From Candidatus Moraniibacteriota bacterium (lineage in GTDB: Bacteria > Patescibacteriota > Minisyncoccia > Moranbacterales > UBA1568): 60,142 bases of DNA. The notes under the pieces were generated by a model that searched no databases, was not told the origin of the DNA, and was given only the letters and a program-made list of their open reading frames with translations. Position numbers and translations under genes: made by a program. How positions within the stretch are numbered: the first letter of the stretch is position 1; every line of letters starts with the position of its first letter. This document shows, piece after piece, positions 6,278-22,704 of the stretch. The stretch is from assembly GCA_963778555.1 (NCBI GenBank), contig CAVZUR010000001.1, positions 1-60,142 of the forward strand, written 5' to 3'.

Positions 6278-6302
6278 GTGAGTCTCAAGATACAAGTCAC
6301 GA

Positions 6303-6674
6303 CCCTTTCTTTTGGCAGCGAAAGAAAGGGGAAAAAGAAAACTGCCGCCCTCGTTTTCAGCTCGGAAAGTTTCGCAATTCACTCCGGCCATTGTATCGCG
6401 AGAGACTGATACAATGGTGATCCTCCATGAATTGAAAACTTTGACCTCGCTTTTCACTGGGGCGGGTACTGGATTCGAGAAACACCCATTGCGGAAGGCG
6501 AAGCCATTGGTCTAGGGCTGGAGGAAAGAGGTTTCGTAAGTCACTCGTTATGAAACCGCCGGAGGCCATAGCCAGCAATGGCATGAGCCGCGAGCACGGG
6601 TGCGCCTTTCCCCGCCCGTACCGAACGGTACGTTCGGGCGGGCTTTGGTTCATTTCTTTGGGCGGGCAAAGAAA
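6303..6674 (+). ncRNA. Unclassified structured RNA-like element, copy A
   Basis: Homologous to 16501-16873 on the - strand, with compensatory changes in at least 5 helices and covarying complementary loops. Terminal hairpins at 6303-6330 and 6653-6674. G.U pairs indicate + sense. Confidence 0.7.
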
Positions 6675-6838
6675 CGAACGAAGAGTTTTGTCGAAAAAAG
6701 AAAGTGGAGAGAATTTTTTGGCACCAAAACCCGCTTGTCGGCAAACAGGGAAATGAAGAAGCTATCTATTTGCTGCAAAAAGAAAGTGATAAAGAGGCTC
6801 TCCTGTGTGATAGGATAGAGACATTCTGCTGAAAACCC

Positions 6839-7630
6839 ATGAAGAAGCATTTCCCGCGCCCCACCCAGGAGGATCGGTCGCTCATTTTACGCAGGCATAC
6901 CCCGGTCCAGTGGCTGGTTTTCGGACTCCTCCTGGCTTTCTATGGTGTGATCCTCTGGCATCAGATCAAGCTGCCGGCGGCCGATGATCTCGGCCGGCAT
7001 ATCATGAACGGCAAACTGGTGCTCCAGGGGGAGTTCCGAGTGCTGGATTCGAACCTGTATTCGTACACCGAGCCGGACGCTTTTTTCGCCAACCATCACT
7101 GGCTGTTCGGCGTCATCGCCTATCTCCTCCATGCGACTATCGGCTTTGGCGGCATTGTGATCTTTAAAGTGCTCCTTCTCCTCTTCGCCTTTGCCCTGCT
7201 CTTTTTCATCGCGCTGAAACGGGCCGATTTCTGGGTCGTAGCGGTCTTTTCCATACCCACTATTCTCATCCTCATGGAGCGGACCTCGTTCCGTCCGGAG
7301 ATCTTCAGCTATCTCTTCGTCGTGATCTATCTGTATTTTCTGCACGCGGCGGTCGAACGGCCCGAGAGCAAACAGCTCTATTGGCTCGTGCCGCTCCAGA
7401 TCCTGTGGGTCAATATCCACATCTTTTTCGTCATCGGCGTGGTACTGGCCGCCGGCTTTCTTGCCGAAGCGATCATCCGGAATTATCGCGAGTTCTGGCG
7501 AAGCCTCCTGGTGAAGCGGCTAGCCGTCCTCGTCCTCTTCTTGGCTATGCGAGCGTCATCAATCCGCAGGGTATTCACGGTGCGCTCCTCTCATTCCCGC
7601 TCAATATCAAAGGCGAGTCGCCTATATTAA
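6839..7630 (+). CDS. Polytopic membrane protein with C-terminal TPR, fragment 1
   Basis: Multiple hydrophobic helices. Frame is lost near 7535. Confidence 0.7.
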   Translation: MKKHFPRPTQEDRSLILRRHTPVQWLVFGLLLAFYGVILWHQIKLPAADDLGRHIMNGKLVLQGEFRVLDSNLYSYTEPDAFFANHHWLFGVIAYLLHATIGFGGIVIFKVLLLLFAFALLFFIALKRADFWVVAVFSIPTILILMERTSFRPEIFSYLFVVIYLYFLHAAVERPESKQLYWLVPLQILWVNIHIFFVIGVVLAAGFLAEAIIRNYREFWRSLLVKRLAVLVLFLAMRASSIRRVFTVRSSHSRSISKASRLY

Positions 7631-7962
7631 TCGCTGAAGACGTGACGGTGCCGGAATATCTCCAAGGGACGTCCCTTTGGTCGGATGTGTCGATCGCAAT
7701 CTTCGTTCCATTGGCGGCGCTCTTGGCCATCAGTTTTTTGTTCCATCCTAGGAAAGCGTCGCTCTTCTATGCGGCCGCGAGCGCGGCGACGGCACTCGTC
7801 GCGTATTCGCATATCCGCGGGCTGGCGCTGTTCGGTTTGATATTCTTGCCGGCGATCTCAGCCAATGTCGCTCCTGTGTATGAGAAAATCCAAAAGCTTT
7901 CGTCAGGCGGAAACCGACGAATTCGGATATGCCATCGAACGTTCGCTCGTCGAGGCTGCTGA
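7381..7962 (+). CDS. Same membrane protein, fragment 2
   Basis: Continues as ...LLGYASVINPQGIHGALLSFPLNI... with further TM helices. True coding starts near 7535. Confidence 0.6.
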   Translation: MARAAPDPVGQYPHLFRHRRGTGRRLSCRSDHPELSRVLAKPPGEAASRPRPLLGYASVINPQGIHGALLSFPLNIKGESPILIAEDVTVPEYLQGTSLWSDVSIAIFVPLAALLAISFLFHPRKASLFYAAASAATALVAYSHIRGLALFGLIFLPAISANVAPVYEKIQKLSSGGNRRIRICHRTFARRGC

Positions 7963-7977
7963 TAGTGCGTTCTCCTG

Positions 7978-8172
7978 ATGTTTCTCTTTTTCAGTAACGC
8001 GATCGGCATCACACAGTTCCGGGAATACGGCATCGGTTTGGACCGTTGGGGCGACGCGGCCGGGACTTTCTTCAAAGCGCAAGGTTTCCACGGCCCTCTG
8101 TTCAATGATACCGATGTGGGGAGTTATCTGATCTATGCCCTGTATCCGGGGACGAGAGGTCTTTGCGGATAA
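7978..8172 (+). CDS. Same membrane protein, fragment 3
   Basis: GITQFREYGIGLDRWGDAAGTFFKAQGFHGPLFNDTDVGSYLIYALYP, which runs on into fragment 4. Confidence 0.5.
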   Translation: MFLFFSNAIGITQFREYGIGLDRWGDAAGTFFKAQGFHGPLFNDTDVGSYLIYALYPGTRGLCG

Positions 8173-8875
8173 CCGTTTCGGCGATGCCTATAGCCCGGCG
8201 TTCCTCCGCGATGTCTACCTCCCGGCGATCGCGGATGAGGCGAAATGGCAGGAAACGAACGCGCGATACGGATTTGAATCCATCTTTTTCTATCAGTACA
8301 ACGCTGTGACCGGTGCGCGCTCTTTTCTCTCCCGACGGATGGCGGATCCGGCATGGGCGCTCGTGTACGCCGATATCTACAATCTCATCTTCATCCGTGC
8401 GACACCCGAAAACGAAGCGAAAATACGGCAATTCCAGATCACGCCGGACAATGCCGCTCTGAAACTCCGTCACTTGCTCCAGTCGGACAGCGTCGCGGAC
8501 CAGGTGGCGGGAGCGGATATCTTGTATCTCCTGGGGCGGGGAGATCTGGCCATGCAGGCATATATAGATGTCGTCACGCGTCACCCGGAGGAGGACAGTG
8601 TTTGGATGGTGATGGCGCAGATCGAGGCGCGGAACAATACCCCCGCGAGCTCGGCCCTGTCGATGATGTATCTGGAAAAATCCCTGGCGGAGGGGAGGAA
8701 GACTGCGGAAGTCTATTCGTTCCTCGGGCTGGCGTATCTGCGGCTCGAACAGCTGGAAAAAGGCCGGGCGATGCTGGAAAAGGCGCTCGAAATCAATCCC
8801 GATCGCGTCGACGCAAGGAGTTTTTTGGATCAGCTCGATGAGCGCCTCAAGCAAGAACAGAAGAATTCTCCATAA
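8135..8875 (+). CDS. Same membrane protein, fragment 4 (periplasmic-type domain plus TPR repeats)
   Basis: REVFADNRFGDAYSPAFLRDVYLP..., then TPR-like LGLAYLRLEQLEKGRAMLEKALEINPD. Confidence 0.7.
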   Translation: MPCIRGREVFADNRFGDAYSPAFLRDVYLPAIADEAKWQETNARYGFESIFFYQYNAVTGARSFLSRRMADPAWALVYADIYNLIFIRATPENEAKIRQFQITPDNAALKLRHLLQSDSVADQVAGADILYLLGRGDLAMQAYIDVVTRHPEEDSVWMVMAQIEARNNTPASSALSMMYLEKSLAEGRKTAEVYSFLGLAYLRLEQLEKGRAMLEKALEINPDRVDARSFLDQLDERLKQEQKNSP

Positions 8876-8886
8876 TCTCTCTCTTC

Positions 8887-9180
8887 ATGCGCATGTCACA
8901 GACGTCGACCCGATTGAAACTCGCCCTCATTCTCGTCAGCTTTCTCGGGCTCTTTCTCGAGCTGGCCCTCATCCGCTGGCTGCCGGCCAATATTTTGTCG
9001 TTGGCGTATTTCTCCAACATCGTCCTCATCGCTTCCTTTCTCGGACTCGGCCTCGGGTTCATGCTAGCGCCGAGAAAAAGAGGATCTGTTCAAATATTTC
9101 CCGATCGTCCTTTTGGGCGTTTCCATTGCCATCATCGGCTTTCGCCAGATCGAAACGATCGTTCCAAATCTCAGCAATGA
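8887..9180 (+). CDS. Membrane-embedded spermidine synthase-like protein, fragment 1
   Basis: N-terminal TM helices. Frame changes around 9070-9110. Confidence 0.6.
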   Translation: MRMSQTSTRLKLALILVSFLGLFLELALIRWLPANILSLAYFSNIVLIASFLGLGLGFMLAPRKRGSVQIFPDRPFGRFHCHHRLSPDRNDRSKSQQ

Positions 9181-10993
9181 ACTCCTCTGGAGCCGGTATA
9201 CCGAAAATCAATTAGTGTCCTTTAATCTCCATCTCGGATTGCTCCCGACGCTCGTCGCCGTCTTCGCGCTCACGAGCCTGCCCTTCATTCTCATCGGGCA
9301 GAAAATGGCTCGGTTGATGCGGCAATTTCCGCCGCTCACGGCGTATGGCCTCGATATCCTCGGTGCGCTCATGGGTATCGGCGCCTTTAGTCTCCTGTCG
9401 TTCGCCAGCGGCGCTCTCGGTTCACCACTGGCCTGGTTTCTGGTGTCGGGCAGCCTCAGCTTGTGGCTCATCCGAGAGCATCAGCAGTTCCTGCTCGTGG
9501 GGGCGGTCTGTGTCGTCGCGGCGGTCATTATCATATACGCCGTTTCCCGGAATGAGATCTGGTCGCCGTATTATAGTGTCAAAGTTGCTGATGCTGCGGC
9601 TGATCATTCGATTCGGCTCTACGTGAACAATTTCTTTTTCCAGAAAGCCGTCGATTTCCGTTCGGATTCTGAAGCTAGAAAAAAATACGAATTTCCCTAT
9701 CTGTTGAAGTCCCCACAGAGCGTGCTCATCCTCGGGGCGGGGACGGGGAACGACGTGGCGATGGCAGGGCTGCGCGGAGTGCCCGACATCGATGCGGTGG
9801 AGCTCGATCCGGTCATCGCCGACATCGGCCGGCAGCGGCATCCGAACCGTCCCTATCAGAATCCCAATGTCCATCTCTTCATCGACGACGCGCGGTCGTT
9901 CCTGAAGAAGAGCGACAAGCAATATGACATGATCGTCCTCGGGACGCTCGATTCGCACGCTTTGTTGTCGGCACGGTCGACCGTGCGGCTCGATAATTTC
10001 GTCTACACAACTGAGGCCCTCGAGAGCATCCAGGAACACCTGAACCCGGACGGCATCGTGGTCCTCATGTTTTCGGTACCGGAACCGTGGCTGAGGGACA
10101 AAATAATCAAGAGCGTCCAACGAGTCTTTCCTGAGCCGGAACCGACCATCCAGATCGCGAAAAACGCCTATCTCTTCAACTTGATGATACTCGCCGGTCC
10201 GGGACTGACCGACATCCGGCGGCAGTATCCGGTAGAGATCGCGCCGACAGAGCCGATTCCGGAGAGCGTCTTCAGCACCCGCAATCTGTCGACCGATGAT
10301 TGGCCGTATCTGTATCTGCGCGAACACGCGATCCCTCGCTATTATCTCGAGGCCATCGGCCTCCTCTTGGCCCTGGCCCTGTATGCCATCGTCTTTCTCT
10401 ACCGAAAGAACATCATCGCCCTGCCCGATTGGAGCGGCTTGAATTTTTTCTGTCTCGGGGCGGCGTTCCTCTTGCTCGAAACGAAAAGCATCACGACGCT
10501 CTCGCTCCTCTATGGCTCGACCTGGTTCGTCAACGCATTCGTCTTCGGCGGCATCCTCACGATGGTGCTCCTGGCGAACATTGTCGTCACCCGGGTACCA
10601 ATCCGGCGGATCGAGACGGTCTATCTTCTCCTGGGGCTGTCTTTGGCGCTGAATTACTTCCTGCCCGTCTCGATGTTCCTCGGCCTGGAGTTCTGGCTGC
10701 GTTCCGGACTGTCGGCCCTCGTCGTGGCGCTCCCCATCTTTTTCGCCTCCATCATCTTTTCCACCCATTTCCGGTCAGTCACGAGCCTCTCTGTCCTGTA
10801 CGGACTCAACCTGATGGGCGCGGTCGTGGGCGGTTTCCTTGAATACAGCTCGATGCTGTTCGGCCTGAGCGCCCTCTATATCCTGGCCGGCATACTGTAC
10901 GCCCTCTCGTACTATGCCTTCACTCAAACGTCGCAGAGTAAAACGAGCGATGGCAAGCCAATCGATATCCCAGCGGCACATGAATCCCTATGA
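9113..10993 (+). CDS. Spermidine synthase-like (class I SAM-fold) domain flanked by TM segments, fragment 2
   Basis: VLILGAGTGNDVAMAG...AVELDPVIADIGR...NVHLFIDDARSFLKKSDKQYDMIVLG, with TM helices on both sides. Confidence 0.8.
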   Translation: MGVSIAIIGFRQIETIVPNLSNELLWSRYTENQLVSFNLHLGLLPTLVAVFALTSLPFILIGQKMARLMRQFPPLTAYGLDILGALMGIGAFSLLSFASGALGSPLAWFLVSGSLSLWLIREHQQFLLVGAVCVVAAVIIIYAVSRNEIWSPYYSVKVADAAADHSIRLYVNNFFFQKAVDFRSDSEARKKYEFPYLLKSPQSVLILGAGTGNDVAMAGLRGVPDIDAVELDPVIADIGRQRHPNRPYQNPNVHLFIDDARSFLKKSDKQYDMIVLGTLDSHALLSARSTVRLDNFVYTTEALESIQEHLNPDGIVVLMFSVPEPWLRDKIIKSVQRVFPEPEPTIQIAKNAYLFNLMILAGPGLTDIRRQYPVEIAPTEPIPESVFSTRNLSTDDWPYLYLREHAIPRYYLEAIGLLLALALYAIVFLYRKNIIALPDWSGLNFFCLGAAFLLLETKSITTLSLLYGSTWFVNAFVFGGILTMVLLANIVVTRVPIRRIETVYLLLGLSLALNYFLPVSMFLGLEFWLRSGLSALVVALPIFFASIIFSTHFRSVTSLSVLYGLNLMGAVVGGFLEYSSMLFGLSALYILAGILYALSYYAFTQTSQSKTSDGKPIDIPAAHESL

Positions 10994-11700
10994 AAAAACT
11001 CTCCATCCTCATCCCGGCGTACAATGAAGAGAAGACGATTCTGGAGATTTTGAAACGTATCGATGCGGCCCCCCTTAGCATCGGGAAAGAGATTATCATC
11101 GTGGACGACGGCTCGACCGACGGGACGCGGTCCATGTCTCGCGACGCTTGACCCCGATCGCTACCGGATCATCTTGAAGGAGAAGAACGGAGGCAAGGGA
11201 TCATGCCTCAAGGCGGGGATTCAAGCGGCGACCGGGGACATCGTCATTTTTCAGGACGCGGACTTGGAGTATGATCCGGCCGATTACCAAGCGATGATAC
11301 TGCCAATTCTAGACGGTCGGACCGAGGCGGTCTTGGGGGTGAGGGTGGGGAGCGGTCGAGAAATGATGAGCCGGAAGACATTTTACTATTGGGTGAGTTG
11401 GCTGGGCGGGGAACTCATCACCGGGACGACCAATCTGCTCTATTCGAATCACGCGATCGAGTATGAGGGTTGCTACAAGGCATTCACGAAGCAGGCTTTG
11501 GCTTCGATCACCATCACCGCTCGCATCTGAGGTTTGAAATAGACAATGAGATCGGTGTGCAAACTCCTCAAAAAAGGCAAACCGGACCATCGATGTTCCC
11601 ATCCGCTATACCCCGCGCAGCTATGAAGCAGGCAAGCATATCCGCTGGACTGACGGCCTCAAGATCCTCTGGACATCATCAAATATCGTTTTGTCGACTA
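10990..11700 (+). pseudogene. GT2 glycosyltransferase (polyprenol-phosphate sugar transferase-like), several frame disruptions
   Basis: MKKLSILIPAYNEEKTI...IIVDDGSTDGT, then ...GDIVIFQDADLEYDP..., then IDVPIRYTPRSYEAGKHIRWTDGLKILW, read in three different frames. The start overlaps the upstream stop (ATGA). Confidence 0.75.
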
Positions 11701-12126
11701 TGAAAAGGCGCCCTCCTCTTTATTATCACGGAAACCAAAAATGAAGGTGCGGTAGAGGTAAAAACTCTCGAGGGCGATGATGCCCGCCGCGAGCAGTTGC
11801 GCGAAGAGGTAGTGCAGATCCAGTAAGCGGACGAAGAGGTACATGAAACCCGTATTGAGGGCGGTGTTGGCGATGGCGATGGCGATATAGAGGATGAATT
11901 GCACCGGAGCGCGGTCGGTCGCGCGGTCTTGGAAGGTCCAGTATTTCTGGAGGAAGAAGCTGACGATGATGGCGAAAGAGAAAGCGAGAATGGATGCCGC
12001 GAGGTACCACCAGCCGAAAATATCCGTGAAGAGGTAGAGCAGGAGGAGGTCGACGCCGAGGGCTATGCCGCCGGATACGGCATACCGCAGCAGTCGGGTG
12101 AAGTTTTTCGGATCGGGAAAATCCAT
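11698..12126 (-). CDS. GtrA-family membrane protein
   Basis: About 140 aa with 4 TM helices. LRYAVSGGIALGVDLLLLYLF...QKYWTF is typical of GtrA. Confidence 0.8.
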   Translation of the reverse strand: MDFPDPKNFTRLLRYAVSGGIALGVDLLLLYLFTDIFGWWYLAASILAFSFAIIVSFFLQKYWTFQDRATDRAPVQFILYIAIAIANTALNTGFMYLFVRLLDLHYLFAQLLAAGIIALESFYLYRTFIFGFRDNKEEGAFS

Positions 12127-13049
12127 ATCGGGCAGTATACCTCAGTTTTTTTGGTGATGGTTTCCGAGATGCGGATGAGCCAATCCGTGATGCGGTAGCC
12201 GAATGTCGCGTCGGCCAGTGGCGGTTCATCGTTTTGAACGCAGCGGATGAAATGCTTCAATTGGTTTTCTAGTGGCTCGCGGGCGATGATAGGCGGGTAG
12301 ACGAGGCGCCCCTGTCTTTCGACGGCCAGCCGGTCCGTTGTTTTCGTCTCGTCGAGCGCGGCGGTTCCTTGTTCTCCCACGAGCGTCATCGTTCTCACTT
12401 TTTCCTTTCCGGACCAGGCGGCGCTAATTGAGAGGAGCGGACCGCGATCGAATCGGATGGCGACATGGAATGCATCCCTCTGTAGTACTCCCGTTGCCCG
12501 AATGAGTTCCGTCGGCTGAAAGAAGTGTTGAAAGACAGACAGCGCGTGCGGGGCGATATCAGAGAAGCAGTCCGTATCTTCTCGTTCGGGACTGAGAAAA
12601 TGCTCCACTCGGAATTCTTGCAATGGACCGAATGATCCCTGCTCCCACTCTTTTTTCATGTAGCGGATGTGGTCATTGTGGAGGTATTGGAATCCGACCA
12701 TGAGAATACGCCCGCTCTTTTCAGCTCGCGCTTTCAGATCTGCCGCTTCCTCGAGCGAGGCGACCAGCGGCTTTTCGACTAGGACATGCTTGCCGTGTTC
12801 CAAAGCCGTCCGGACAATCGAGTAATGAGTCGCAAAGGGCGTCGCGACCACGACGCAGTCAATTTCGGGATCGGCGAGGACGCTTGTGACGTCTGATGTC
12901 CAGCGTACAGTCGGAGGCAGAGGCTCGGCCTGCTCAAGGTGTGGGGAGCGGGTGACAACAGTCTTCAATCTGATCTTGGTGGTCTTTGAAAGAAGACGGA
13001 GATGATGTCGGCCGAATGTTCCAGCTCCGATGAGGGCGAAGTGCAGCAT
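12063..13049 (-). CDS. Gfo/Idh/MocA-family NAD(P)-dependent sugar oxidoreductase
   Basis: N-terminal Rossmann motif IGAGTFGRHH, then EKPLVASLEEAADL. Confidence 0.85.
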   Translation of the reverse strand: MLHFALIGAGTFGRHHLRLLSKTTKIRLKTVVTRSPHLEQAEPLPPTVRWTSDVTSVLADPEIDCVVVATPFATHYSIVRTALEHGKHVLVEKPLVASLEEAADLKARAEKSGRILMVGFQYLHNDHIRYMKKEWEQGSFGPLQEFRVEHFLSPEREDTDCFSDIAPHALSVFQHFFQPTELIRATGVLQRDAFHVAIRFDRGPLLSISAAWSGKEKVRTMTLVGEQGTAALDETKTTDRLAVERQGRLVYPPIIAREPLENQLKHFIRCVQNDEPPLADATFGYRITDWLIRISETITKKTEVYCPIWIFPIRKTSPDCCGMPYPAA

Positions 13050-13067
13050 GAACGTGGTTCAGATGAA

Positions 13068-14138
13068 CTATGCGGGCCGCTCGCCTTTGAGCTGGTCCTG
13101 GTACCAGGCGAGGGTTTTTGCCAGGCCGACCTGGAGCTCGACGGTGGGCAAAAACCCCAGCTCATTCTTCGCCTTCGTCAGGTCCGGACACCGCCGGTTC
13201 GGCTCGCCCGCTGGGTAGGATTCGGGATAATCGATGTTCTGGAGCGGAATCGGTTCCGCGAAGAGTCGGCTGATGATCTGGGTGAGGGTGGCGATACTGA
13301 TCTCTTCATTATTGGAACCGATATTGTACGTCTCACCCGCTCTGCCTCGGAGCAGCACTTTGAGGAAACCTTGCGTCGCATCACTGATGTAACAGAACGT
13401 CCGGGTCTGTTCCCCCTGGTTGTAGACCAACAGGGGATTGCCGCGAATCCCGCGGATGAGATGGGTGGAAATCACGCGGTAATCGTCGATGCGCATGCCG
13501 GGGCCGTAGATATTGAATGGCCGCACGATTTTCACGGGCACGCCATAGAGCTGATGATAGGTGCTGCACAAGGTTTCACCGAGCCGCTTTGATTCGTCGT
13601 AACAGGCCCGGGGGCCATTGGTCGAGACATTGCCTGAGTAGGTTTCGGGGGTCGGAATCTGATCGGGATCCGGGTCGCCGTAGATTTCGCTCGAGCTGAA
13701 ATAGAGGAATCCCTGTACGTTTTTTCGCCGGGCGAGCTCCAAGAGGTTCTTGGTGCCGCTGGTTGCGACCTCGATCGTCTCGAGGGGCAGTTTGCGGTAG
13801 TGCTGGGGCGAGGCGAGTCCCGCGGCATGAATGATATAGTCAACGTCCATATCCGGCAGGGGGGCGCAGACATCTTGCTCAATGAGCCGGAAGTTCGGAT
13901 TGTTTTCTGTTCCGAACAAGGCGTTATGTTTGGAGCCGGTGATGAAGTTGTCGATGACGACGACCGTGCAGGGCTTCGCGAAGCACTTTTCATTGAGCGT
14001 GAGGAGGACAGTGACGAGGTAACTGCCCAAAAATCCGGCGCCACCGGAGATGAGAATCGTCTTGCCTTCAAGCAAGGGTCGCTCGTCAGTGACGGACTCA
14101 ATGGTCTCCGTAATGTCTGGGCGGATGAGAGGGTGCAT
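13068..14138 (-). CDS. NAD-dependent epimerase/dehydratase (UDP-glucuronate decarboxylase-like SDR)
   Basis: GGAGFLGSYL, YDESKR (YxxxK) and NIYGP. Start placed at MHPLIRPD, just after the upstream stop. Confidence 0.85.
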   Translation of the reverse strand: MHPLIRPDITETIESVTDERPLLEGKTILISGGAGFLGSYLVTVLLTLNEKCFAKPCTVVVIDNFITGSKHNALFGTENNPNFRLIEQDVCAPLPDMDVDYIIHAAGLASPQHYRKLPLETIEVATSGTKNLLELARRKNVQGFLYFSSSEIYGDPDPDQIPTPETYSGNVSTNGPRACYDESKRLGETLCSTYHQLYGVPVKIVRPFNIYGPGMRIDDYRVISTHLIRGIRGNPLLVYNQGEQTRTFCYISDATQGFLKVLLRGRAGETYNIGSNNEEISIATLTQIISRLFAEPIPLQNIDYPESYPAGEPNRRCPDLTKAKNELGFLPTVELQVGLAKTLAWYQDQLKGERPA

Positions 14139-14142
14139 AGGG

Positions 14143-15327
14143 CTATACTTCTCGGGGCGGAATGGGAATGAGATAGCGGTATCTATTATTTGTCTTTTTC
14201 CGGATATCGTCCAGGTATTCGTAGGCGAACACGACCAGGACATCCGGCTGGGGATCGCAGCGTTCCAAAAACTCTTTGGCCACGATGGGGATATGCGTGC
14301 CGGGACTGAAACGGCCCTGCTTCAAGGGACTGTCGTCGACGATGAATTCGATCAGGTCCGGACCGATCGCTCCGTAATTGCAGATGGTCGCGACGCGGGC
14401 CGGGGCGCTGTAGCCGGCGACTCGGAGACCGGCCGCTTGGTACTCGCGGAGCTTGTCGCGAAAGGCTTCGAGCGAGGCGCTGACCGTTTGGCTGAACGCC
14501 TCGAGGATCGGAAAGCTCAATTCCCGCTCTTCCCGCGAGAGAAAATCCGCGACGCGTTGGGAGGTCGCGTGCCCATCGGCCGCTTTGCGGGCCGTCACTC
14601 GAAGCGATCCGCCGTGCGGCTCGATCTCTTCGACATCGGCGATAAACATCCCGTGACTCTCAAAGAGCGTCTTGAGAGAAGTCAGCGAGTAATAGAATAT
14701 CCGGTCCAGGTAGAAGCGTTCGAATTGGATCTTTTGGAGGATATGACCGATGTATTCGACTTCGATGATGCAATCGCCGTCATCGGTGAGGAGCATCTTG
14801 GCCGCCTCGATGAAGGCGTGTGGGTCGGCGACATGGGTGAAGATGCTGCTGGCCACGATCACATCGGGTTGGCCGTACTGCCTCTTTATTTTTTCGGCGC
14901 ATTCGAGATCGAAAAACGAGATGAGTGTGGTGAGTCCGGCGTCGTTCGCGATTTTTCCAACATTGATCGAGGGATCGACGCCGATGGCCCGGACGCCGAG
15001 CGCCTGGAGCGGCCTAAGGAGGATGCCGTCATTGGATCCCACATCGACCACGAACCGGGCACCGGCCAATGTCTGAGCGAGCGCTTCGAAATGCCGCACC
15101 AGGCCGAGATTGACCGACGAGAGATAGTAGTAATCGACGAACATCCGTTCCCGCGACACGCTGGTTCCGAGCTGGACATTTTTGCATTGCGGGCAAAACA
15201 GTACCACGAGCGGGAAAAAGTCCTCGGTTTTGAATTCCGCTTCGGTCGGGTATTTATTGGCCAGCGGCTGCTGTCCGAGATCGAGGAACGGAATGAGTTG
15301 GCTTTGTCGGCAGACGGTGCATGGCAT
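14143..15327 (-). CDS. Sugar C-methyltransferase-like class I SAM methyltransferase with N-terminal zinc ribbon
   Basis: MPCTVCRQ...CPQC zinc ribbon, VVDVGSNDG SAM motif, and a C-terminal C-methyltransferase-type domain. Confidence 0.8.
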   Translation of the reverse strand: MPCTVCRQSQLIPFLDLGQQPLANKYPTEAEFKTEDFFPLVVLFCPQCKNVQLGTSVSRERMFVDYYYLSSVNLGLVRHFEALAQTLAGARFVVDVGSNDGILLRPLQALGVRAIGVDPSINVGKIANDAGLTTLISFFDLECAEKIKRQYGQPDVIVASSIFTHVADPHAFIEAAKMLLTDDGDCIIEVEYIGHILQKIQFERFYLDRIFYYSLTSLKTLFESHGMFIADVEEIEPHGGSLRVTARKAADGHATSQRVADFLSREERELSFPILEAFSQTVSASLEAFRDKLREYQAAGLRVAGYSAPARVATICNYGAIGPDLIEFIVDDSPLKQGRFSPGTHIPIVAKEFLERCDPQPDVLVVFAYEYLDDIRKKTNNRYRYLIPIPPREV

Positions 15328-15395
15328 AGAGAGTGGGGGATATTCAGCAGCGTTAAATTCCACGGGATCCTGACAGTATGATATAGCTTTACGGG

Positions 15396-16346
15396 CTATT
15401 CTCCTCCTTTGATACTGGCTATATAACTGTAGACCATTTTGGAGATGTGGGCGACCTTCTCCTGAGCCGGCCCCATGTCCGTGTTTTTGACAAAGGCGCA
15501 GAGGACATACGGCCGGCTGGGCACGTACACGATGCCGCAATCGATGAAGAGCGACTGATCGGTTTCAGTCGTGTCAAACACACCCACCTTATGCGCGACG
15601 GGGACACCCTCTGCCACGCCGGCCGGAATCCCGTTCGCGAACGCGGTCTCGGTGAGTATGTCCAGAACGGCACTCGAGTTTTGATTGGAAAGGAAGGATG
15701 AGAGGTAGAGGCTTCGGAAAATGGACGCGTAGCTCTTGGGCGTGACGAGTGTCTGGCGCTCGCCACCTACCTGGCTGATTTCGATATTCAGCCCGTCATA
15801 AACCTCATTGACTTCTGATGGGGTGAGCAGGTCGAATAGGGCATGGTAGGCGGTATTATCGGATTCAATCAACGAGGACTTTACTAGATCGAGAATCGGA
15901 AGCTTCGTACCCGCGCCCATTTCCCAGAGCGATCCAAAGCGCTGGTCCAGATGCTCCGGCTTGATCTCGACGGCATCATCGAGAGCTAGTTTCCCACGCT
16001 CGGACTTTTTGAAAATCGACATGGCCAACGGAACTTTGGACAAACTAGACAATTGGACCGCTGTTTCGTCGGATGCTCCGATCGAGGTGCCGGACGGCAG
16101 GTACTCGAAATACACGCCCAGAGTATTATCCTGCGCGGCGACGTATTCTTTGAGGGCATGCCGCAGAGGAATGATATTGATGATGATATCGTTCGGATTT
16201 TCGACAAAGATCCGTTTGGAGAGGTAGGGAAATTCTGTGGCGTCGAGCGGGGCGGCTGTTTTTTCGGGCCGGAACCAGTGATACGCAAAAAACCCGTTGA
16301 TGAGCAGGCTGAGGAAGAGAACGGCGATCAAGGGCTTCGTTTGCAT
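15396..16346 (-). CDS. Class A beta-lactamase-like serine hydrolase (membrane-anchored)
   Basis: SLSK (SxxK), SDN and HKVG motifs, plus an N-terminal TM helix. Start placed at MQTKPLIAV; the longer ORF runs through the RNA element. Confidence 0.75.
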   Translation of the reverse strand: MQTKPLIAVLFLSLLINGFFAYHWFRPEKTAAPLDATEFPYLSKRIFVENPNDIIINIIPLRHALKEYVAAQDNTLGVYFEYLPSGTSIGASDETAVQLSSLSKVPLAMSIFKKSERGKLALDDAVEIKPEHLDQRFGSLWEMGAGTKLPILDLVKSSLIESDNTAYHALFDLLTPSEVNEVYDGLNIEISQVGGERQTLVTPKSYASIFRSLYLSSFLSNQNSSAVLDILTETAFANGIPAGVAEGVPVAHKVGVFDTTETDQSLFIDCGIVYVPSRPYVLCAFVKNTDMGPAQEKVAHISKMVYSYIASIKGGE

Positions 16347-16421
16347 CAGTCCTATTCTATCATGTGAGGCAGGGTCTGTTCTTTTCAATCGCGCCGAAGT
16401 TTCCGAGCCATCGGCACTATC

Positions 16422-16446
16422 AAAACCCTCTGAAGCAGAGGGTTCT
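16422..16446 (-). terminator. Terminator-like hairpin, homologous to 6251-6277
   Basis: AACCCTC / GAGGGTT stem. On the - strand it is followed by TTTTGA. Confidence 0.55.
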
Positions 16447-16500
16447 TTGATCTTTCTATTACGACCCTTTCTATTGGCAGCAAAGAGATATATTCTATCT

Positions 16501-16873
16501 ATTTCTTTGGGCGCCCAAAGAAATGAACGAAACCCGCCCGAACGTACCGTCCGGTACGGGCGGGGAAAAGCACACCCAGGCTTCCGGCTCATGCGGTCGC
16601 CAGCCACAACCTCTGGCGGTTTCCTCGCGGCAGACTGAGAAAACCTTTTTCCTCCAGGTGTGGGGCAACCGTTTCGCCTCCCGCAGTGGGTGTTTGTGAA
16701 CCCAAAATCCGCCCCAGTGAAAGGCGAGGCGAGCGTACCCGATTAGTAAAGGATCACCATTTTCTCAGTCTGCCGCGAGAAAATGGCCGGAATGAATAGT
16801 GGTACGCTCCGAGCCAAAAACGAGGGCGGCACGTTTCTTTCGTCTCTTTCTTTTGGTGCGAAAAGAAAGAGAC
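16501..16873 (-). ncRNA. Unclassified structured RNA-like element, copy B
   Basis: Reverse complement aligns to 6303-6674. The block 16533-16694 vs 6481-6642 has 38 substitutions in 162 nt and no gaps. Terminal hairpins at 16501-16524 and 16842-16873. Confidence 0.7.
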
Positions 16874-17009
16874 ACATAGTTTGCCGTAAAAATGAAAGTG
16901 GAAAATCTATTGGAAGCGGTAAGAAAGAGGTAAATAAGGTCTTGACCCTGGATCCTAGAGCCTTCCTCGTTGTCCTTTCTTACTCGATCCCCATGGTAAA
17001 CTGTCGTAT

Positions 17010-18008
17010 ATGAATCCCAAAGTCTTTACGGCGCTCGTCGCGCTTTTTGGTGTCGGGCTGATCGGCGGCTATGCGCTGCATACTATCTGGACGCCCGAGG
17101 CTCCAGCCATACCAGCAGGGGAGGAAAGTACGTCCAAGCAGGTCCGCCAAATGGGAAATTATTCCTATATCAATCCACTCCTCGAGTGCGAAGTCGCCGA
17201 AGGATCAATCGATGCTCGCAAAGAAAATTTTCATGGGGAACTGGAGGACTTTGTCGCGTCCACCAAAGAGACGCGCCATCTCACCGAGGTCGCGGTGTAT
17301 TTCCGTGACCTGAACAATGGCCCGACCTTTGGAGTGGATGAAGAGGGAGAGTTTTTTCCGGCATCGCTTTTGAAGGTCCCGGTCATGATGGCCTACTATC
17401 ACCTGGCCGAAAGGAATCCGTCGATCATGGATACCCTGATTCCCTTCGAGCAAGAGCGGGAGTTCGGAATCGTGCCGACGATCATCCCGCGCGAAAAACT
17501 CGCTGTCGGACAGAGCTATACGGTCGAGGAACTCATCCGCCGTATGATCGTGTATTCGGACAATCAGGCGATCACACTCCTCTCGGAACGCCTGCCGCTC
17601 GCGGTGGTACAAGACCTCTTCACCATAATCGGCGTCGGCGGGGATGTCTTGGTCGATTCTGCATCCAAGCTGACCGTGAAGGAATACGCCGGCTTTTTCC
17701 GCATCCTCTTCAATAGTTCCTATCTCTCGCGGGAATCATCGGAAAAGGCGCTCGCGCTTCTCGCATCAACTGATTATCACGACGCGCTCCCGGCTGGGGT
17801 GCCCGCGGGTATCGCCATCGCCCACAAATTCGGCGAGGCGGGATCGGGAGCGATCGAGCACCAGCTCCACGATTGCGGCATTGTCTACTTCCCTGAACAC
17901 CCGTATCTCGCCTGCATCATGACACGCGGCCAGGACACGGAGCGGTTGAAGCAAGCGATCATTGATATCTCCCGGTTCATCTATACCCAGATCGACATGC
18001 AGTACTAG
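17010..18008 (+). CDS. Class A beta-lactamase-like serine hydrolase, paralog of 15396-16346
   Basis: SLLK, SDN and HKFG motifs, plus an N-terminal TM helix. Confidence 0.8.
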   Translation: MNPKVFTALVALFGVGLIGGYALHTIWTPEAPAIPAGEESTSKQVRQMGNYSYINPLLECEVAEGSIDARKENFHGELEDFVASTKETRHLTEVAVYFRDLNNGPTFGVDEEGEFFPASLLKVPVMMAYYHLAERNPSIMDTLIPFEQEREFGIVPTIIPREKLAVGQSYTVEELIRRMIVYSDNQAITLLSERLPLAVVQDLFTIIGVGGDVLVDSASKLTVKEYAGFFRILFNSSYLSRESSEKALALLASTDYHDALPAGVPAGIAIAHKFGEAGSGAIEHQLHDCGIVYFPEHPYLACIMTRGQDTERLKQAIIDISRFIYTQIDMQY

Positions 18009-18063
18009 TGCTCAGCGCCTCTCATTTTTGTCGCCTGGCGAGGTTTGGTATACTGGAGGAACT

Positions 18064-18795
18064 ATGGATAGTATTAATCGGCCGAATCTTGCGGGACGAA
18101 ACACTGTACCGAAAGCACGGTGGCGGTTTTCACCGGTGATTATCATCCTTGCGGCCTCGCTTTTTGTGGCTCTCGCCGCGGCGGGGTATTTCTTCTACCA
18201 ATCCAAGTACGCGATAGAGATGCAAGCGGCGAATGAGATCGAAGAGATCGTCACGACTCTCGGCCGGTTCATGGAACTGCCGCCGGAAGAAACGCCGACT
18301 TTGGCGACCGTGACGGACCGGGGGAAGCTGGCCGGCCAGCCGTTTTTCCAGAAGGCCGAGAATGGCGACAAAGTCCTCATCTATTCGAGTGCAGGCCGCG
18401 CTATCCTGTATCGGCCGAGCCTGAAGAAAATCATTGACGTGACTAGCGTGAATGTGAATCAAACTGCTCCCGAAGGGGCCGCTGTACCCGCCGCGGAACC
18501 GGTCATCCCGGCAATCGTCCGAGTGGCCATCTATAACGGTACGCTGACAGCCGGCGCGACGAGCGCGGCCGAGAGCCAGCTGAAGCCAGCTTTCCCCAAT
18601 GTGGCCGTCGTCACCAAAGCCAATGCCGCCAAGCAGACCTATACCCAGACGATCGTCATGGATGTGACTGGCAAGAATGCTGAAATAGCTAAGGGTATCG
18701 CCACGACGCTTTCGGGCTCGGTCGGCTCACTCCCGGTTGGAGAGAAGGCGCCTACAGACGCGGACATTCTCATCATCCTCGGCGGCACGCAGTGA
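18064..18795 (+). CDS. LytR_C (LytR/CpsA/Psr C-terminal) domain protein, membrane-anchored
   Basis: N-terminal TM helix. C-terminal VAIYNGTLTAGATSAAESQLK...ADILIILG pattern. Confidence 0.7.
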   Translation: MDSINRPNLAGRNTVPKARWRFSPVIIILAASLFVALAAAGYFFYQSKYAIEMQAANEIEEIVTTLGRFMELPPEETPTLATVTDRGKLAGQPFFQKAENGDKVLIYSSAGRAILYRPSLKKIIDVTSVNVNQTAPEGAAVPAAEPVIPAIVRVAIYNGTLTAGATSAAESQLKPAFPNVAVVTKANAAKQTYTQTIVMDVTGKNAEIAKGIATTLSGSVGSLPVGEKAPTDADILIILGGTQ

Positions 18796-18920
18796 TGAGC
18801 GCTGGAAAGATCGTGCCGCCCATAGCAGCCGGGCGGTTTTTCATTGAGTTATCCACTGAGGCGGTATACTCAGGACAACATTGCCCCGGTATTCTTTTCG
18901 GGGTAGGATAGCCAGACTTT

Positions 18921-19283
18921 ATGAGTACGACGACCGAAGACATCAAAGCCCGCCTCAATATCGTCGAGGTGGTGGGCCAATACGTGAAGCTCCAGAAAGC
19001 GGGGAGCGCGTGGAAGGCGAATTGCCCCTTCCATCAGGAGAAGACGCCCTCCTTCAACGTGAACGAGGAGCGCAATATGTGGCATTGCTTCGGCTGCGGC
19101 AAAGGCGGTGATGTGTTCGCGTTCATCATGGAGATCGAGGGGCTGGAATTCGTCGAAGCGCTGAAACTCTTGGCTGGGAAAGCGGGGGTGGAACTGCCCG
19201 AGTATCATGGCAGCGGCCGGGCAGCCGGCGGAGACGAAAGATCGGAGCTTGGAGATCCTCGAGCTCAGCATGAAATTTTATGA
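18921..19283 (+). CDS. dnaG: DNA primase DnaG, N-terminal zinc-finger fragment
   Basis: [34 protein letters not shown]. Frame is lost around 19205-19235. Confidence 0.9.
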
Positions 19284-20724
19284 AAAGCAGCTTTGGGAAA
19301 GCGAACGCGGAAAAGCGATGCTCGGGTATCTCCATGAGCGGGGACTGACTGACGACTCCATCCGGACCTATCGGCTCGGCTATGCGCCGGACGGCTGGGA
19401 ACACATCACGAAATTTCTGGTGAGTCGTGGATTCCGAAGCGAGGAGCTCGAAGGCTGCGGGCTGTCGCTCAAGGGGAAAGAAGGCCGTGGATTCTATGAC
19501 CGCTTCCGCGATCGCATCATGTTTCCGATCGGCGATATCCTCGGCCGTCCGATCGGCTACTCGGCTCGCGTCGCGCCGGGCGGCGATGAGTCGCAGGCGA
19601 AATACGTCAATACGCCCGAGACGCATCTCTACCACAAAAGCCGCGCGCTCTACGGGCTCGCCTTGGCCAAAGCTTCGATCAAGGAAACGGGTCGCGCCAT
19701 TCTCGTCGAAGGCAATATGGATGTCATCGCGCTCCACCAAGCGGGACTGCCGAATGTGGTCGCGGTATCAGGGACAGCCCTGACCGCCGAGCAGCTGGCG
19801 ATTCTGAAACGGTATGGGAAGAAATTGGCACTGTTCTTCGATATGGACAAAGCCGGACAAGCGGCAGCTTGGAAGAGCGCCCTCGCTGCGTTCGACCTGG
19901 ATTTCAGTGTCGAAGCGGTCGCGCTCACGAGCGGCAAAGACGCGGCTGATATGAATCGCGAGCATCCCGAACTCTTGCGACAGGCGGTCGCGGAGGCCCA
20001 GCCAGCGATGCAGTATTTCCTGAACTCACTCCTCAGTACGGTCGATGCTCAAGCCCAGGAAGGCAAACGGGAAATCGTCGAACGCTACGCCGAGCTATTG
20101 GCAGCCGTCTCAAACACACTCGACCGAGCTCACTGGACCAAGGTACTGGCGGAGGCAATCGGCGCGGATGCGAAAGTCGTCCAGACGACGGTCGAAAAAG
20201 CATTCCGCTCGCTCCATCGACCAGATCATTTCATCGAAAGCCGTCCAACAGCGGCCTTTCTTCCGAAGACTTTTGGTCGGCGTTCCGAAGTCTTGCGTGA
20301 GGGCCTCATCGGACTCATGCTCGCGAGCCCGATAGCGCGCGAAGTCGTCGCCCTCGAACAAGACGTCGCCGTAACGGATTTTCTCTCACGGCATCCGATT
20401 GCGTTCTTCATCCGCAATAATCCGACTGATCCGATTGCCGCGATTGAGGACCGGACGCTTCAGGCGGTGGCCAGCGATATCTTGTTTCGGACGCTCGACA
20501 TCCCGAGCCTACGGATGGCTGAGGAGAATCGGGAAGCGGTGACCGCTAGCATTGCGGGCGAATACCTTCGGGATCTGCGCTCTGAACTCCATGAAAAGGA
20601 TGAGCGGATCGACCTGGGGCGAGCGCTCGAGGCGGCTCGGCAGTCCGGGGATAAGACCGAGGAACGCCGTCTCTTGGAAGCGTTTGCCCGCCTCACCCGG
20701 AATGACGCTTCCCAGAACGGGTGA
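19207..20724 (+). CDS. dnaG: DNA primase DnaG, RNA polymerase/TOPRIM and C-terminal part
   Basis: [21 protein letters not shown] and [16 protein letters not shown] (TOPRIM). Confidence 0.9.
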
Positions 20725-20770
20725 AATTTGCTAGTCTGAGCCTACGAAAAGTTAATTTGTTTCTTTTGTT

Positions 20771-22088
20771 ATGGCCAAAAAACCGCTGAAAAAGAAGAAG
20801 CCGGCGCCCAAGAAGAAGGCTTCCCAAAAGCGAGCGGTGAAGAAACACGTCTCGAAAAAGCCGGCCCGCAAGCTCGCGCAGCGCAAACATCCGAAACAGC
20901 GGTCCAAGAAGCCCGTATCCTCCCGGAAGAAGAGCATTCAGCGGAAGGCGCCCCACAAGCGCGGCGCGCCGTCACGACGATCGTCGCATGAAGAGTTGAA
21001 AAAGAATGCTTTCGATGAACTTCTCGCTCGCGGCAAGCAGCGCGGCTTTGTCACGGAAGATGAAATCATCCACATCCTGCCGGACATCGAACAGGACCTC
21101 GACAATCTCGAGAACCTGTATGAGCAGCTTGAGACCTCGGGTATTCGTATCGTCGGTTCGGAGGAAATGCTGAAAGTCGGCGAAGAGAAAGAAGAGGTTC
21201 CCGTAAAGGGCGCGAAGAAGAAAGACAAGATGATGGATCTCGGTGAGAGCGACGACGCTTCGGACCTGGTCCAGATGTACCTGAAGGAAATTGGCCGCGT
21301 TACGCTGCTCACCGGCGATGAAGAGGTGCAAGCTCGCCAAGGCAATCGAGAAAGGGGACTTGGTTGCCAAGCAGCGGCTGACCGAAGCGAACCTCCGGCT
21401 CGTCGTGTCCATCGCCAAAAAATATGTCGGCCGTTCGCACAACCTCTCACTCCTCGATCTCATCCAAGAGGGGAATATCGGGTTGTTCCGCGCCGTGGAG
21501 AAATTCGACTACCGCAAGGGCTACAAGTTCTCGACCTATGCCACCTGGTGGATCCGCCAGGCGATCACCCGCGCGCTGGCCGACCAGTCCCGCACCATCC
21601 GCATCCCGGTGCACATGGTGGAGACGATCAATAAATACGCCCAGGTGACCCGCCGCCTGGTCCAGGAGCTCGGCCGCGAGCCGCTCGCCGGAAGAGATCG
21701 CCGCAGAAATGGATCTGGAAGTGGACAAGATCCGCCATATCCAGAAGATCTCCCAGGAAACCGTGTCGCTCGAGACGTCGGTCGGTGACAATGATGACGA
21801 TTCGGTGCTCGGCGATTTCATCGAAGATACGGAAACCGTCATGCCGCATCAGATCGGCGGCGCGCAAGCTCTTGAAGTCCCACATCGCGCGATATCCTCG
21901 ACGAGCTCACTCCGCGCGAGCAGAAGATTCTCCGCATCCGTTTCGGCCTCGAAGACGGCGTGACCCACACTCTCGAAGAAGTCGGCCAGGAATTCGGCGT
22001 GACGCGCGAGCGCATCCGGCAGATCGAGGCCAAGGCGCTCGAGAAGATCCGCGAACACTCAAGCCTGAAAAAGCTCCGCGACTACTAG
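20771..22088 (+). pseudogene. rpoD: RNA polymerase sigma-70 factor RpoD with a Lys-rich N-terminal tail; at least 4 frame disruptions
   Basis: Region 1.2/2 ([54 protein letters not shown]), region 3 and region 4 ([15 protein letters not shown]...[18 protein letters not shown]) lie in successive frames. Shifts are near 21325, 21690, 21850 and 21890. Stop at 22086-22088. Confidence 0.9.
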
Positions 22089-22121
22089 TTTTGACGCTAC
22101 TCATCACGCTGCGCTATCCTG

Positions 22122-22154
22122 ACCTCTCCTCGAGTAGGAGAGGTTTGTTTCTTT
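22122..22154 (+). terminator. Intrinsic terminator after rpoD
   Basis: ACCTCTCCT cgagt AGGAGAGGT hairpin followed by TTGTTTCTTT. Confidence 0.85.
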
Positions 22155-22181
22155 CACCAACTTTAAGGAAGGAGGAGCCAC

Positions 22182-22681
22182 ATGGCTGCTCAAGATACAG
22201 CAATTGTCCGGGCCTACCGATTGTTTACTCGCGCCGAGCTCAGGAATTGAAAAAGAAATGGAGTGGATGGAGTGGGGTGTCGTTCAATCCATCGGGATAT
22301 ATCCTCCAGCGCGGCGGCCTCCGAATGGGCTACCACGTTTCGCAATCGCGGCAGGGAGCGATAGTGAATCAGGCCCCTGCCGAACAAATGGATCTGATGG
22401 TGTATACAGATGGATTCGGAAACGCAGCGCCGCAGCGGCTGGTGACGCTCTATGCTGTGACTGATGACACGCCATCCGGTTTCTGCCTCCTCGTCTCGGT
22501 AGTCCATTGTCTGCCAGAAGTCGATCCGACTCGTGCCGAGCTGAGACAATTTCTCGACCAACTCGGATTCCAGACCAACTCCCTCATGTTTGGCGATCGT
22601 CCTCCAGGCATCCATCGTTTCCAAGCGTATTGGAGCGACCTTCTCGCGCCGTCGGCGGACACGCGGTTTGACAATCGATAG
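22182..22681 (+). CDS. Hypothetical protein (one frame disruption near 22240)
   Basis: Strong AAGGAAGGAGGAG Shine-Dalgarno before the ATG at 22182, and a + strand terminator after the stop. The antisense 156-aa ORF was judged spurious. Confidence 0.45.
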
Positions 22682-22704
22682 CACTTGTCCGTGCGTGCAA
22701 ACTC

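Follow-up and report, generated by a model that had tools for sequence, protein, structure and literature searches.

The window analyzed here, a 60,142-nt stretch of DNA from a Candidatus Moraniibacteriota bacterium (contig CAVZUR010000001.1 of assembly GCA_963778555.1), contains two copies, designated A and B, of a non-coding element bounded by palindromic hairpins. The core of copy A occupies positions 6299–6682 on the plus strand and the core of copy B positions 16493–16877 on the minus strand. The two copies bracket a gene block of about 10 kb (6839–16346) that encodes, in order, a membrane protein, a TPR protein, a spermidine-synthase-like protein, an oxidoreductase, an epimerase, a C-methyltransferase, and a second Beta-lactamase2 paralogue. 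Copy B is followed at 17010–22700 by a cluster composed of bla2, coding for a Beta-lactamase2-type serine hydrolase, a gene for a lytR_C protein, dnaG, and rpoD. The best homologues of the neighboring proteins lie in Patescibacteria, mostly under the names Candidatus Moranbacteria or Moraniibacteriota. Related loci are cited by L numbers, and the closest relative of the window is L245.

Copy A is read on the plus strand. Its left flank carries a terminator-like hairpin, AAAACCCTCTGAAAAGGAGGGTTT, at 6252–6275, which is also found to the left of copy B and of the L245 element. A bounding palindrome at 6301–6332, designated H1 or HP5, has the sequence GACCCTTTCTTTT GGCAGC GAAAGAAAGGGGA and consists of 13-nt arms around a 6-nt center. 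The core that follows (6333–6610) comprises a closing helix, the hairpin P2, the middle part P3, and the hairpin P4. A GC-rich hairpin of 32 nt, CCCGCCCGTACCGAACGGTACGTTCGGGCGGG, is inserted at 6611–6642, at the site cTTTC^cTTTGG. The second bounding palindrome, HP3 (GTTCATTTCTTTG GGCGGG CAAAGAAACGAAC), lies at 6648–6679. The right flank (6686–6795) contains two degenerate half-palindromes of the form TTTGyyGnAAAAAGAAAGTGr, at 6686–6706 and 6768–6788. The former resembles the right flank of copy B in the same, plus/plus orientation, and the latter resembles the degenerate H1 of copy B in reverse orientation.

Copy B has the same parts in a different arrangement. The terminator-like hairpin of its left flank (16422–16444, plus strand) has the same orientation as at copy A and in L245. 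It is followed at 16461–16486, also on the plus strand, by a degenerate H1 palindrome, ACGACCCTTTCTATTGGCAGCAAAGA, which is the extra degenerate hairpin that the initial annotation had reported for this locus. Here H1 is a static hairpin of the flank; at the corresponding position in L245, an intact H1 abuts the 5′ end of the core. On the minus strand there follow the palindrome HP3, or H2 (16497–16528), the 32-nt GC hairpin (16533–16564), with the same insertion site and relative orientation as in copy A, and the core (16565–16841), which is the reverse complement of the core of A. A third palindrome, H3 (GTCTCTTTCTTTT GGTGCG AAAAGAAAGAGAC, 16842–16873, plus strand), abuts the 5′ end of the core of B. 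H3 is present in L245 with its center in the same orientation, but there it sits 120 nt past HP3, detached from the core. The right flank of copy B (16874–17009, plus strand) is 91–92% identical to that of L245 and carries a promoter-like sequence of bla2, TGGTAAACT, at 16994–17002, 7 nt before the ATG at 17010.

The initial annotation described this locus as a core inverted between two flanks that run in the same direction. All of its coordinates are confirmed. The two cores are reverse-complement copies of 77.0% identity over 370 nt by blastn. In the MAFFT and repeat-finder comparison, reverse-complement arms pair 6305–6476 with 16698–16869 at 76% identity and 6480–6645 with 16530–16695 at 77%. 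The 3′ end of the core is best preserved, with arms 6641–6674 and 16502–16535 at 88%. The pattern TTTCTTT-N(4–10)-AAAGAAA occurs exactly four times in the 60 kb, at the four bounding hairpins, while shuffled sequences lead to an expectation of 0.00. The motif ACGACCCTTTCTNTTGGCAGC fits 20 of 20 specified bases at both 6299 and 16461, with 0.01 occurrences expected.

The similarity of the flanks is real and exceeds all shuffled controls. The left flanks, including the hairpin, align in plus/plus orientation with a Smith-Waterman score of 57, against a shuffle maximum of 37 (n=500), and the right flanks with a local alignment score of 31, against a maximum of 24. Part of the similarity can also be aligned in the other orientation (score of 35 versus a maximum of 33), a consequence of the palindromic nature of the hairpins and of the likeness between the entire element and its reverse complement. 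The direction of the flanks is nevertheless settled, because both flanks of L245 align in plus/plus orientation (85% on the left and 91% on the right) while its core is opposite to that of copy B. A chance resemblance produced by low-complexity, A/T-rich palindromes, or two independent old duplicates without inversion, would be compatible with the pieces that align both ways, but is hardly credible in view of the shuffled controls and of the L245 flanks at 85–92% identity around a reversed core.

Homologues of the whole element were obtained by a scan with the 5′ hairpin motif, blastn, and nhmmer. They are found in L214 (two copies, one of them partly deleted), L157 (two copies), L144, and L238 (a short form). 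The elements of L245 and of L246, a complete genome, were reached through orthologues of the adjacent serine hydrolase. These six loci together contain nine further copies or fragments. A genome scan with the inner motif TTTCACTGGGGCGG...AAACACCCA gave no matches, and that region later proved to be variable. The home site of the element is just upstream of the conserved bla2-lytR-dnaG-rpoD cluster, and L214 and L157 each possess a second copy between lytR and dnaG. As a separate observation, a group I intron (Rfam, 71.8 bits) is located at 49–327, at the edge of the L214 locus.

Between genomes, the element is 69–79% identical, compared with 65–72% for adjacent coding DNA and 58–71% for the proteins. 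A non-coding module of about 380 bp that can still be aligned at such a distance is therefore unlike non-functional intergenic DNA. The element is best explained as a vertically inherited non-coding DNA module of 330–420 bp, present in one or two copies per genome of Moranbacteria-like Patescibacteria. It fits no described family. Rfam 15 gives no match at the gathering score in the window, and none at E<10 inside either core; across 19 related loci, Rfam detects only tRNAs and a group I intron elsewhere. No similar DNA was found in plasmid, phage, and viral collections by blastn or pattern search, and literature searches returned nothing on the element or its GC hairpin.

The orthologous site upstream of bla2 differs between genomes in both orientation and occupancy. 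The HP5 end is proximal to bla2 in window copy B, L214, and L157, and the HP3 end is proximal, in the opposite orientation, in L245 and L246. No element is present at this site in L247, L248/L249, and L250, and L251 contains a degenerate HP5 and an HP3 without a core. The opposite orientation and the empty sites that the initial annotation suggested looking for in related genomes thus both exist, together with a site that has retained the palindromes alone. The orientation calls rest on assemblies, but either orientation is supported by at least two independent ones, and a complete genome is among them.

Two pairs of loci show that orientation and presence have changed recently at a fixed site. 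In the first pair, the window and L245, the bla2 proteins are 88% identical and the coding DNA 87%. The left flank, comprising the terminator-like hairpin and H1, is 85–86% identical and the right flank, from H3 to the ATG, 91–92% identical, both in plus/plus orientation, whereas the core is inverted. The order of palindromes, H1, H2, and H3, is the same in both loci, and H1 and H3 are static, with centers that keep their orientation. The core lies between H1 and H2 on the plus strand in L245, but between H2 and H3 on the minus strand in the window. In the second pair, L157 and L251, bla2 is 97% identical and the aligned right flank up to bla2 contains only two differences. L157 possesses the full element and L251 the palindromes alone.

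The bla2 protein is also encoded on 23 contigs of Logan assemblies, which come from many different runs. Nine of the ten that were fetched (L252–L261) begin at the same base, at a perfect 30-nt palindrome located 78 nt upstream of bla2. These breaks were considered as evidence of inversion and rejected, as a perfect 30-nt palindrome alone breaks a k=31 graph. Such palindromes fragment the assemblies of these genomes.

The 10-kb block between copies A and B is absent from L245. L245 contains a single element, whose left neighbors are homologues of window 1–6221 and whose right neighbors correspond to window 16842–18464. This element is a chimera. Over its left flank and 5′ half, identity is 85% to copy A and 72% to copy B; over its 3′ half, identity is 84% to copy B and 75% to copy A. 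The initial annotation took the two loci for old copies, a view that does not accommodate the match of the 5′ half of A and the 3′ half of B, each at 84–85%, to one and the same L245 element. The chimeric copy therefore points to recombination between copies together with gain or loss of the 10-kb block. Such a chimera is what a crossover between two directly repeated copies should yield; in the reverse event, DNA would have been integrated at a single copy.

The gene order around the block is distinct in L001 (188–2415), a more distant relative. There, a Beta-lactamase2 gene is located directly upstream of, and co-directional with, a homologue of the membrane protein gene at 6839. In the window, the Beta-lactamase2 paralogue (15396–16346) and the membrane protein gene lie at opposite ends of the block, each adjoining a copy of the element.

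The secondary structure of the element was derived from an alignment of eight full copies over about 360 positions, from which the GC hairpin had been removed. RNAalifold divides it into the palindromes HP5 and HP3 at the 5′ and 3′ ends and, between them, a closing helix (AAAGAAA/TTTCTTT), the branched hairpin P2, the variable middle P3, and the hairpin P4. The HP5 helix (alignment columns 13–38) is 95% paired and contains four pairs that are changed on both sides; the HP3 helix (columns 380–411) is likewise 95% paired. The bounding hairpins all have 13-nt arms and a 6-nt center and share the arms (C/T)TTTCTTT/AAAGAAA(G/A). P2 and P4 are inverted counterparts of one another, and in most copies the loop of P2 (CTCGCGnnAGACTGAG) is the reverse complement of the loop of P4. 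A hidden Markov model of the family matches the opposite strand of every copy at 65–115 bits, compared with 270–330 bits for the forward strand. The element as a whole is thus one large imperfect palindrome, its left half pairing with its right half, and either end carries a smaller palindrome.

Base pairing is conserved well beyond expectation. Standard pairs account for 91.9% of the alignment cells concerned, as opposed to 81.4 ± 0.7% after shuffling and 43–47% when the structure is slid along the alignment. Of 113 pairs, 50 are changed on both sides, compared with 23.9 ± 3.0 in shuffled and 8–15 in slid alignments. Neither observed value was reached in any of 500 shuffles, and selection on the pairing potential is therefore evident.

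The conserved pairing favors neither strand. The consensus energy of the eight copies is −118.2 for the sense strand (113 pairs) and −112.5 for the antisense strand (111 pairs). An RNA transcribed from one strand normally shows a clear excess of G·U pairs. The 103 pairs common to both strand predictions contain 26 G·U and 25 A·C combinations, that is, no G·U excess, and the z-scores from folding of single sequences are alike on both strands. Such strand-neutral conservation of base pairing is unusual. As the pairing potential is equal on both strands, the working form would more likely be folded single-stranded or cruciform DNA, or transcripts from either strand, than an RNA from one strand.

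The element has no conserved sigma-70-type or extended −10 motif in its interior or directed outward, and none is consistently directed into it. A TGnTAnnnT motif is located between the element and the ATG of bla2, the bla paralogue, and the gene at 6839. In the case of bla2, it lies 7 nt before the ATG and outside the element, in the window and L245 alike. The extended −10-like sites of this type are at 16994–17012, about 16355–16346 (minus strand), and about 6806–6841 in the window, and at about 7017–7035 in L214. The 7-nt distance from the ATG applies to both bla genes, and motifs so close to the start codon suggest that leaderless mRNAs may be used in this lineage.

Taken as a whole, these features are most readily accommodated by a conserved, quasi-palindromic module of DNA for which recombination takes place at the bounding 13-6-13 palindromes and between copies, a reading to which we assign about an even chance. 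Any two of the bounding palindromes form inverted repeats, and recombination can therefore have several outcomes. It would flip the core in place, as in copy B relative to L245, or delete the core and leave the palindromes, as in L251 relative to L157. It would also join or split copies, with gain or loss of the DNA between them, as exemplified by the 10-kb block and the single chimeric copy of L245. The direct flanks of A and B, along with the chimera, suggest that the two copies arose as direct repeats, flanks included, and that the core of B was flipped afterwards, probably between the static hairpins H1 (16461–16486) and H3 (16842–16873). We infer the route of recombination, the order of these events, and a function at the level of DNA from the comparisons described above.

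Patescibacteria have small genomes with little spare DNA. A non-coding module of about 380 bp is nevertheless kept in them about as well as the adjacent genes, and yet it flips, disappears, and brackets a 10-kb block of envelope genes and genes for sugar modification. Should the palindromes really serve as sites of recombination, they would account for the reshuffling and acquisition of gene blocks in reduced genomes without recognizable transposases, and would point to an enzyme yet to be found.

The layout of the bounding hairpins, with 13-nt inverted arms and a 6-nt center, resembles the core sites of tyrosine recombinases, such as dif (11-6-11) and loxP and FRT (both 13-8-13). Unlike in those sites, however, the centers differ between partner sites of the element, and no recombinase was found. 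Flip-flop systems, such as the 2-micron plasmid and the inverted repeats of plastids, are similar in that whole inverted copies bracket a segment, here the 10-kb block; flipping of the block itself is not observed. Integron attC sites are likewise imperfect palindromes, conserved in structure and variable in sequence; they lie between gene cassettes and function in the form of a folded single strand. However, attC sites are single hairpins of 57–141 nt with R and L boxes and adjoin intI, and no such boxes or integrase are present at the element.

Several points weigh against a recombining module. As the initial annotation had observed, no recombinase or transposase domain is found among the 40 open reading frames (ORFs) of the window, and none appears in the precomputed Pfam lists for the 13–21-kb neighborhoods of L246, L247, L248, and L250. 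The 6-nt centers are GGCAGC or GGCGGC in H1, GGCGGG, GGCGCC, or GTCGCG in H2, and GGTGCG in H3, and such differing centers do not fit a simple exchange by a tyrosine recombinase. Arms of 13 nt are also short for recombination of the RecA type. Derivation of copy B from the L245 arrangement by inversion would additionally require loss or gain of the 120-nt spacer. The window assembly contains apparent indel errors, as seen in rpoD and dnaG, whose reading frames seem to be shifted. Only the eight full copies underlie the strand test, and RNAalifold with G·U pairs allowed slightly favors the sense strand (−118 versus −113), with a wider gap (−111 versus −91) when six copies are used. Finally, the strong conservation implies a cellular function, which recombination as such leaves unnamed.

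Among the alternatives, the element may encode a large, structured non-coding RNA and form a transcription unit by itself. Its orientation would then be irrelevant, rare rearrangements at the palindromes would be tolerated, and the conserved helices would be helices of RNA. The strong pairing with many compensatory changes, a conservation comparable to that of coding DNA, and folding z-scores of −4.3 and −7.6 all agree with such a gene, as do the slightly better folding of the sense strand in the RNAalifold prediction and some invariant G·U pairs (for example, columns 109–118 and 298–309). The strand comparisons speak against it, however, since G·U pairs do not outnumber A·C in the shared helices and the minimum-free-energy z-scores are alike on both strands. 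Moreover, the search for a conserved promoter was negative, the two orientations have unrelated sequences ahead of the 5′ hairpin, no Rfam family matches, and the core can be lost between genomes with 97% identical bla2. We regard an RNA gene as rather unlikely on this balance. The specific relation to guide-type RNAs raised in the initial annotation is likewise unsupported, with no Rfam match, no strand preference, and no promoter. In contrast to the omega and re-RNAs of IS200/IS605 elements, the element shows neither a preference for one strand nor a match to HEARO or any other Rfam model.

A non-autonomous mobile element would account for the observations differently. A transposase encoded elsewhere would recognize the end hairpins, and the different orientations and empty sites would reflect excision and re-insertion. 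In keeping with a palindrome-associated transposable element (PATE) of the IS200/IS605 kind, similar subterminal palindromes with TTTCTTT/AAAGAAA arms are present at both ends (HP5 and HP3) of all copies, no transposase is encoded inside, and the interior is structured. The element is present or absent between close relatives, and TTAC or TCAC precedes H1 in L245, window copy B, and window copy A. The frame HP5 + AAAGAAA ... TTTCTTTGG + HP3 surrounds an unrelated interior in a metagenome-assembled genome (MAG) of Uhrbacteria, and hairpins of the HP5 type adjoin unrelated genes in other MAGs of the candidate phyla radiation (CPR).

The distribution of the copies argues the other way. They number one or two per locus, are syntenic with neighbors of 63–88% identity, and diverge in step with these neighbors, instead of being dispersed and nearly identical. 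Many dispersed copies are expected of a miniature inverted-repeat transposable element (MITE); here there are two in 60 kb and at most one in the 13–21-kb orthologous loci, at 61–79% identity. The palindromes remain without the core in L251, and H1 and H3 stay while the core changes sides, which differs from the precise excision of a unit. The bases 5′ of HP5 are TTAC, TCAC, TCTT, or GATT, depending on the copy, and thus no target tetranucleotide is conserved. Neither TnpA, TnpB/IscB, nor any other transposase was found among the 40 window ORFs or in the L246–L250 neighborhoods, and collections of plasmids, phages, and viruses hold no match. On these grounds, we consider a mobile element of this kind unlikely. 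The initial annotation had offered an invertible segment or a mobile hairpin element; a flippable, recombining, hairpin-bounded element is upheld in general terms, whereas membership of the IS200/IS605 family is not supported, given that no transposase was found in the regions covered, that the copies are few, syntenic, and 70–79% identical, and that the palindromes persist when the core is lost.

REP/REPIN and BIME elements, which are associated with RAYT transposases, as well as the ERIC, Correia, BOX, and RPE repeats, are also extragenic imperfect palindromes that form hairpins, persist for long periods, can build larger foldback units, and show compensatory changes. A REPIN is included in the mobile-element alternative. 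In contrast to this class, the element is very low in copy number, syntenic, paced with its neighboring genes, much larger, and branched, and no RAYT was identified.

A programmed phase-variation switch, in which a site-specific invertase toggles the neighboring cell-envelope genes, is improbable. Like fimS, hin, and Bacteroides-type invertons, the element is short, non-coding, and bounded by inverted repeats, and occurs in both orientations at a fixed site beside envelope-related genes (bla2 and lytR); the 13-6-13 layout is also typical of recombinase core sites. However, its two orientations are seen between genomes only. The TGnTAnnnT motif of bla2 stays outside the flipped segment in either orientation, no promoter was found inside the element, and no invertase gene was found in its vicinity. 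For an inverton, a promoter between inverted repeats would be enough, and a conserved interior of 300 nt is not required. Unlike in invertons, the interior of the element is long, conserved, and palindromic, and the bounding repeats are themselves palindromes.

The GC-rich hairpin near the 3′ end of the element, overlooked in the initial annotation, is a separate inserted module. Its sequence, CCCGCCCGTACCGrACGGTACGTTCGGGCGGG, is the most conserved stretch of the window copies, with one difference including a short 5′ flank. It is missing at the same site in L245, L246, copy 2 of L214, and L144. L157 and copy 1 of L214 contain at this site a variant in which the outer stem is unchanged but the inner stem differs, and copy 2 of L157 carries the variant at the other end of the element instead, in reverse-complement context. 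All of these junctions read TTTC^TTTGG. GC hairpins of this kind are confined to copies of the element in the window, L144, and L157.

Elsewhere, the GC hairpin is found without the element. Its exact 22-nt inner sequence is present in at least 120 metagenome contigs in unrelated contexts, with up to five occurrences per contig, and the 32-nt hairpin as a whole is almost unaltered there. As the hairpin is everywhere in this metagenome scan and the element is not, the hairpin must be a module of its own. At least 129 copies were counted (loci L005–L124), about 90% of them with the same outer stem; L023, L116, L099, and L044 provide variants that keep the outer stem and alter the inner one. Many GC hairpins are located, in either orientation, at the D-loop position of a 5′ tRNA fragment (approximately positions 1–31), as in L013, L021, L050, L054, L086, L034, L103, L117, L121, and others, with an intact tRNA gene 50–270 nt away. 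Insertion into functional tRNA genes was considered and rejected, as in-silico removal of the hairpin never restores a tRNA. The 32-nt GC hairpin may be a very small mobile module. As side observations, L046 (five copies in 12.7 kb), L108, and L123 contain a repeated unit every 1.2–3 kb, in which a TATAAT-like box precedes the GC hairpin by about 20 nt, and the L046 contig also contains a fragment of a group II intron.

Parts of the hairpin frame are likewise distributed more widely than the Moranbacteria core. A hairpin followed by (G/A)AAAGAAA is present, with unrelated neighbors and without this core, in MAGs labelled Peribacteria, Peregrinibacteria, Uhrbacteria, Chisholmbacteria, and Gottesmanbacteria. 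The form CCACTTTCTTT-N-AAAGAAAGTGG, followed by (A/G)AAAGAAA, occurs in L131, L135, L139, L145, L167, L170, L171, L174, L178, L198, L206, L218, L175, and L052. In L179 (1969–2560, Uhrbacteria), the interior within the frame HP5-AAAGAAA ... CTTTCTTTGG-HP3 is a different one, about 500 nt in length and made up mostly of a long inverted repeat. It thus looks as if the frame were the general unit and the interior variable content.

A broader and rather doubtful proposal, which we put forward tentatively, extends the recombining module to CPR bacteria at large. These bacteria may possess an undescribed recombination system based on small, sequence-specific palindromes. Hairpins of the 13-6-13 type with TTTCTTT/AAAGAAA arms would enclose conserved foldback modules, which an enzyme acting on folded DNA would flip, excise, or employ for the integron-like capture of gene blocks. 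The companion 32-nt GC hairpin would then be an ultra-small mobile module that inserts at junctions such as cTTTC^TTTGG and at tRNA-like D-loops and has spread nearly unchanged across very different organisms.

Three further identities were considered for the element, of which the first two were rejected. The sequence GGGGCGGGTACTGGATTCGAG at 6460–6484 resembles the conserved 5′ motif of transfer-messenger RNA (tmRNA), GGGGnnGnnnnnGGnUUCGA, a class in which permuted two-piece forms were also taken into account. ARAGORN and Rfam are negative, however, no tag reading frame is present, and the motif belongs to the variable region P3 and is missing in L214, L157, L245, and L246. A 5′ leader or riboswitch of the downstream genes does not fit either, as these genes have their own promoter-like motif between the element and the ATG, and the orientation of the element relative to bla2 is not fixed. 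As to the third, a DnaA-box-like TTTCCAC in the hairpins and a GC-skew minimum near 3–11 kb would suggest a replication origin, but this support is too weak.

The remaining observations concern other parts of the window. Over positions 1–17000, the cumulative GC skew has a broad minimum at about 3–11 kb and rises steadily thereafter, and the direction of the genes switches at about 16.4 kb. At 18870–22700, rpoD is split over at least three frames (20771–21634, 21291–21788, and 21709–21963), and the dnaG ORF is without a zinc-ribbon start; these disruptions could be either assembly indel errors or pseudogenes. Four tandem units of about 315 nt, 73–95% identical, are located at 1208–2453 inside large ORFs of the left end, where relatives possess giant genes (2400–3100 aa). 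Repeats of about 96 nt at 29695–30305 encode calcium-binding repeats of the DGIDNDxD type (TSP3-like) in a surface protein.

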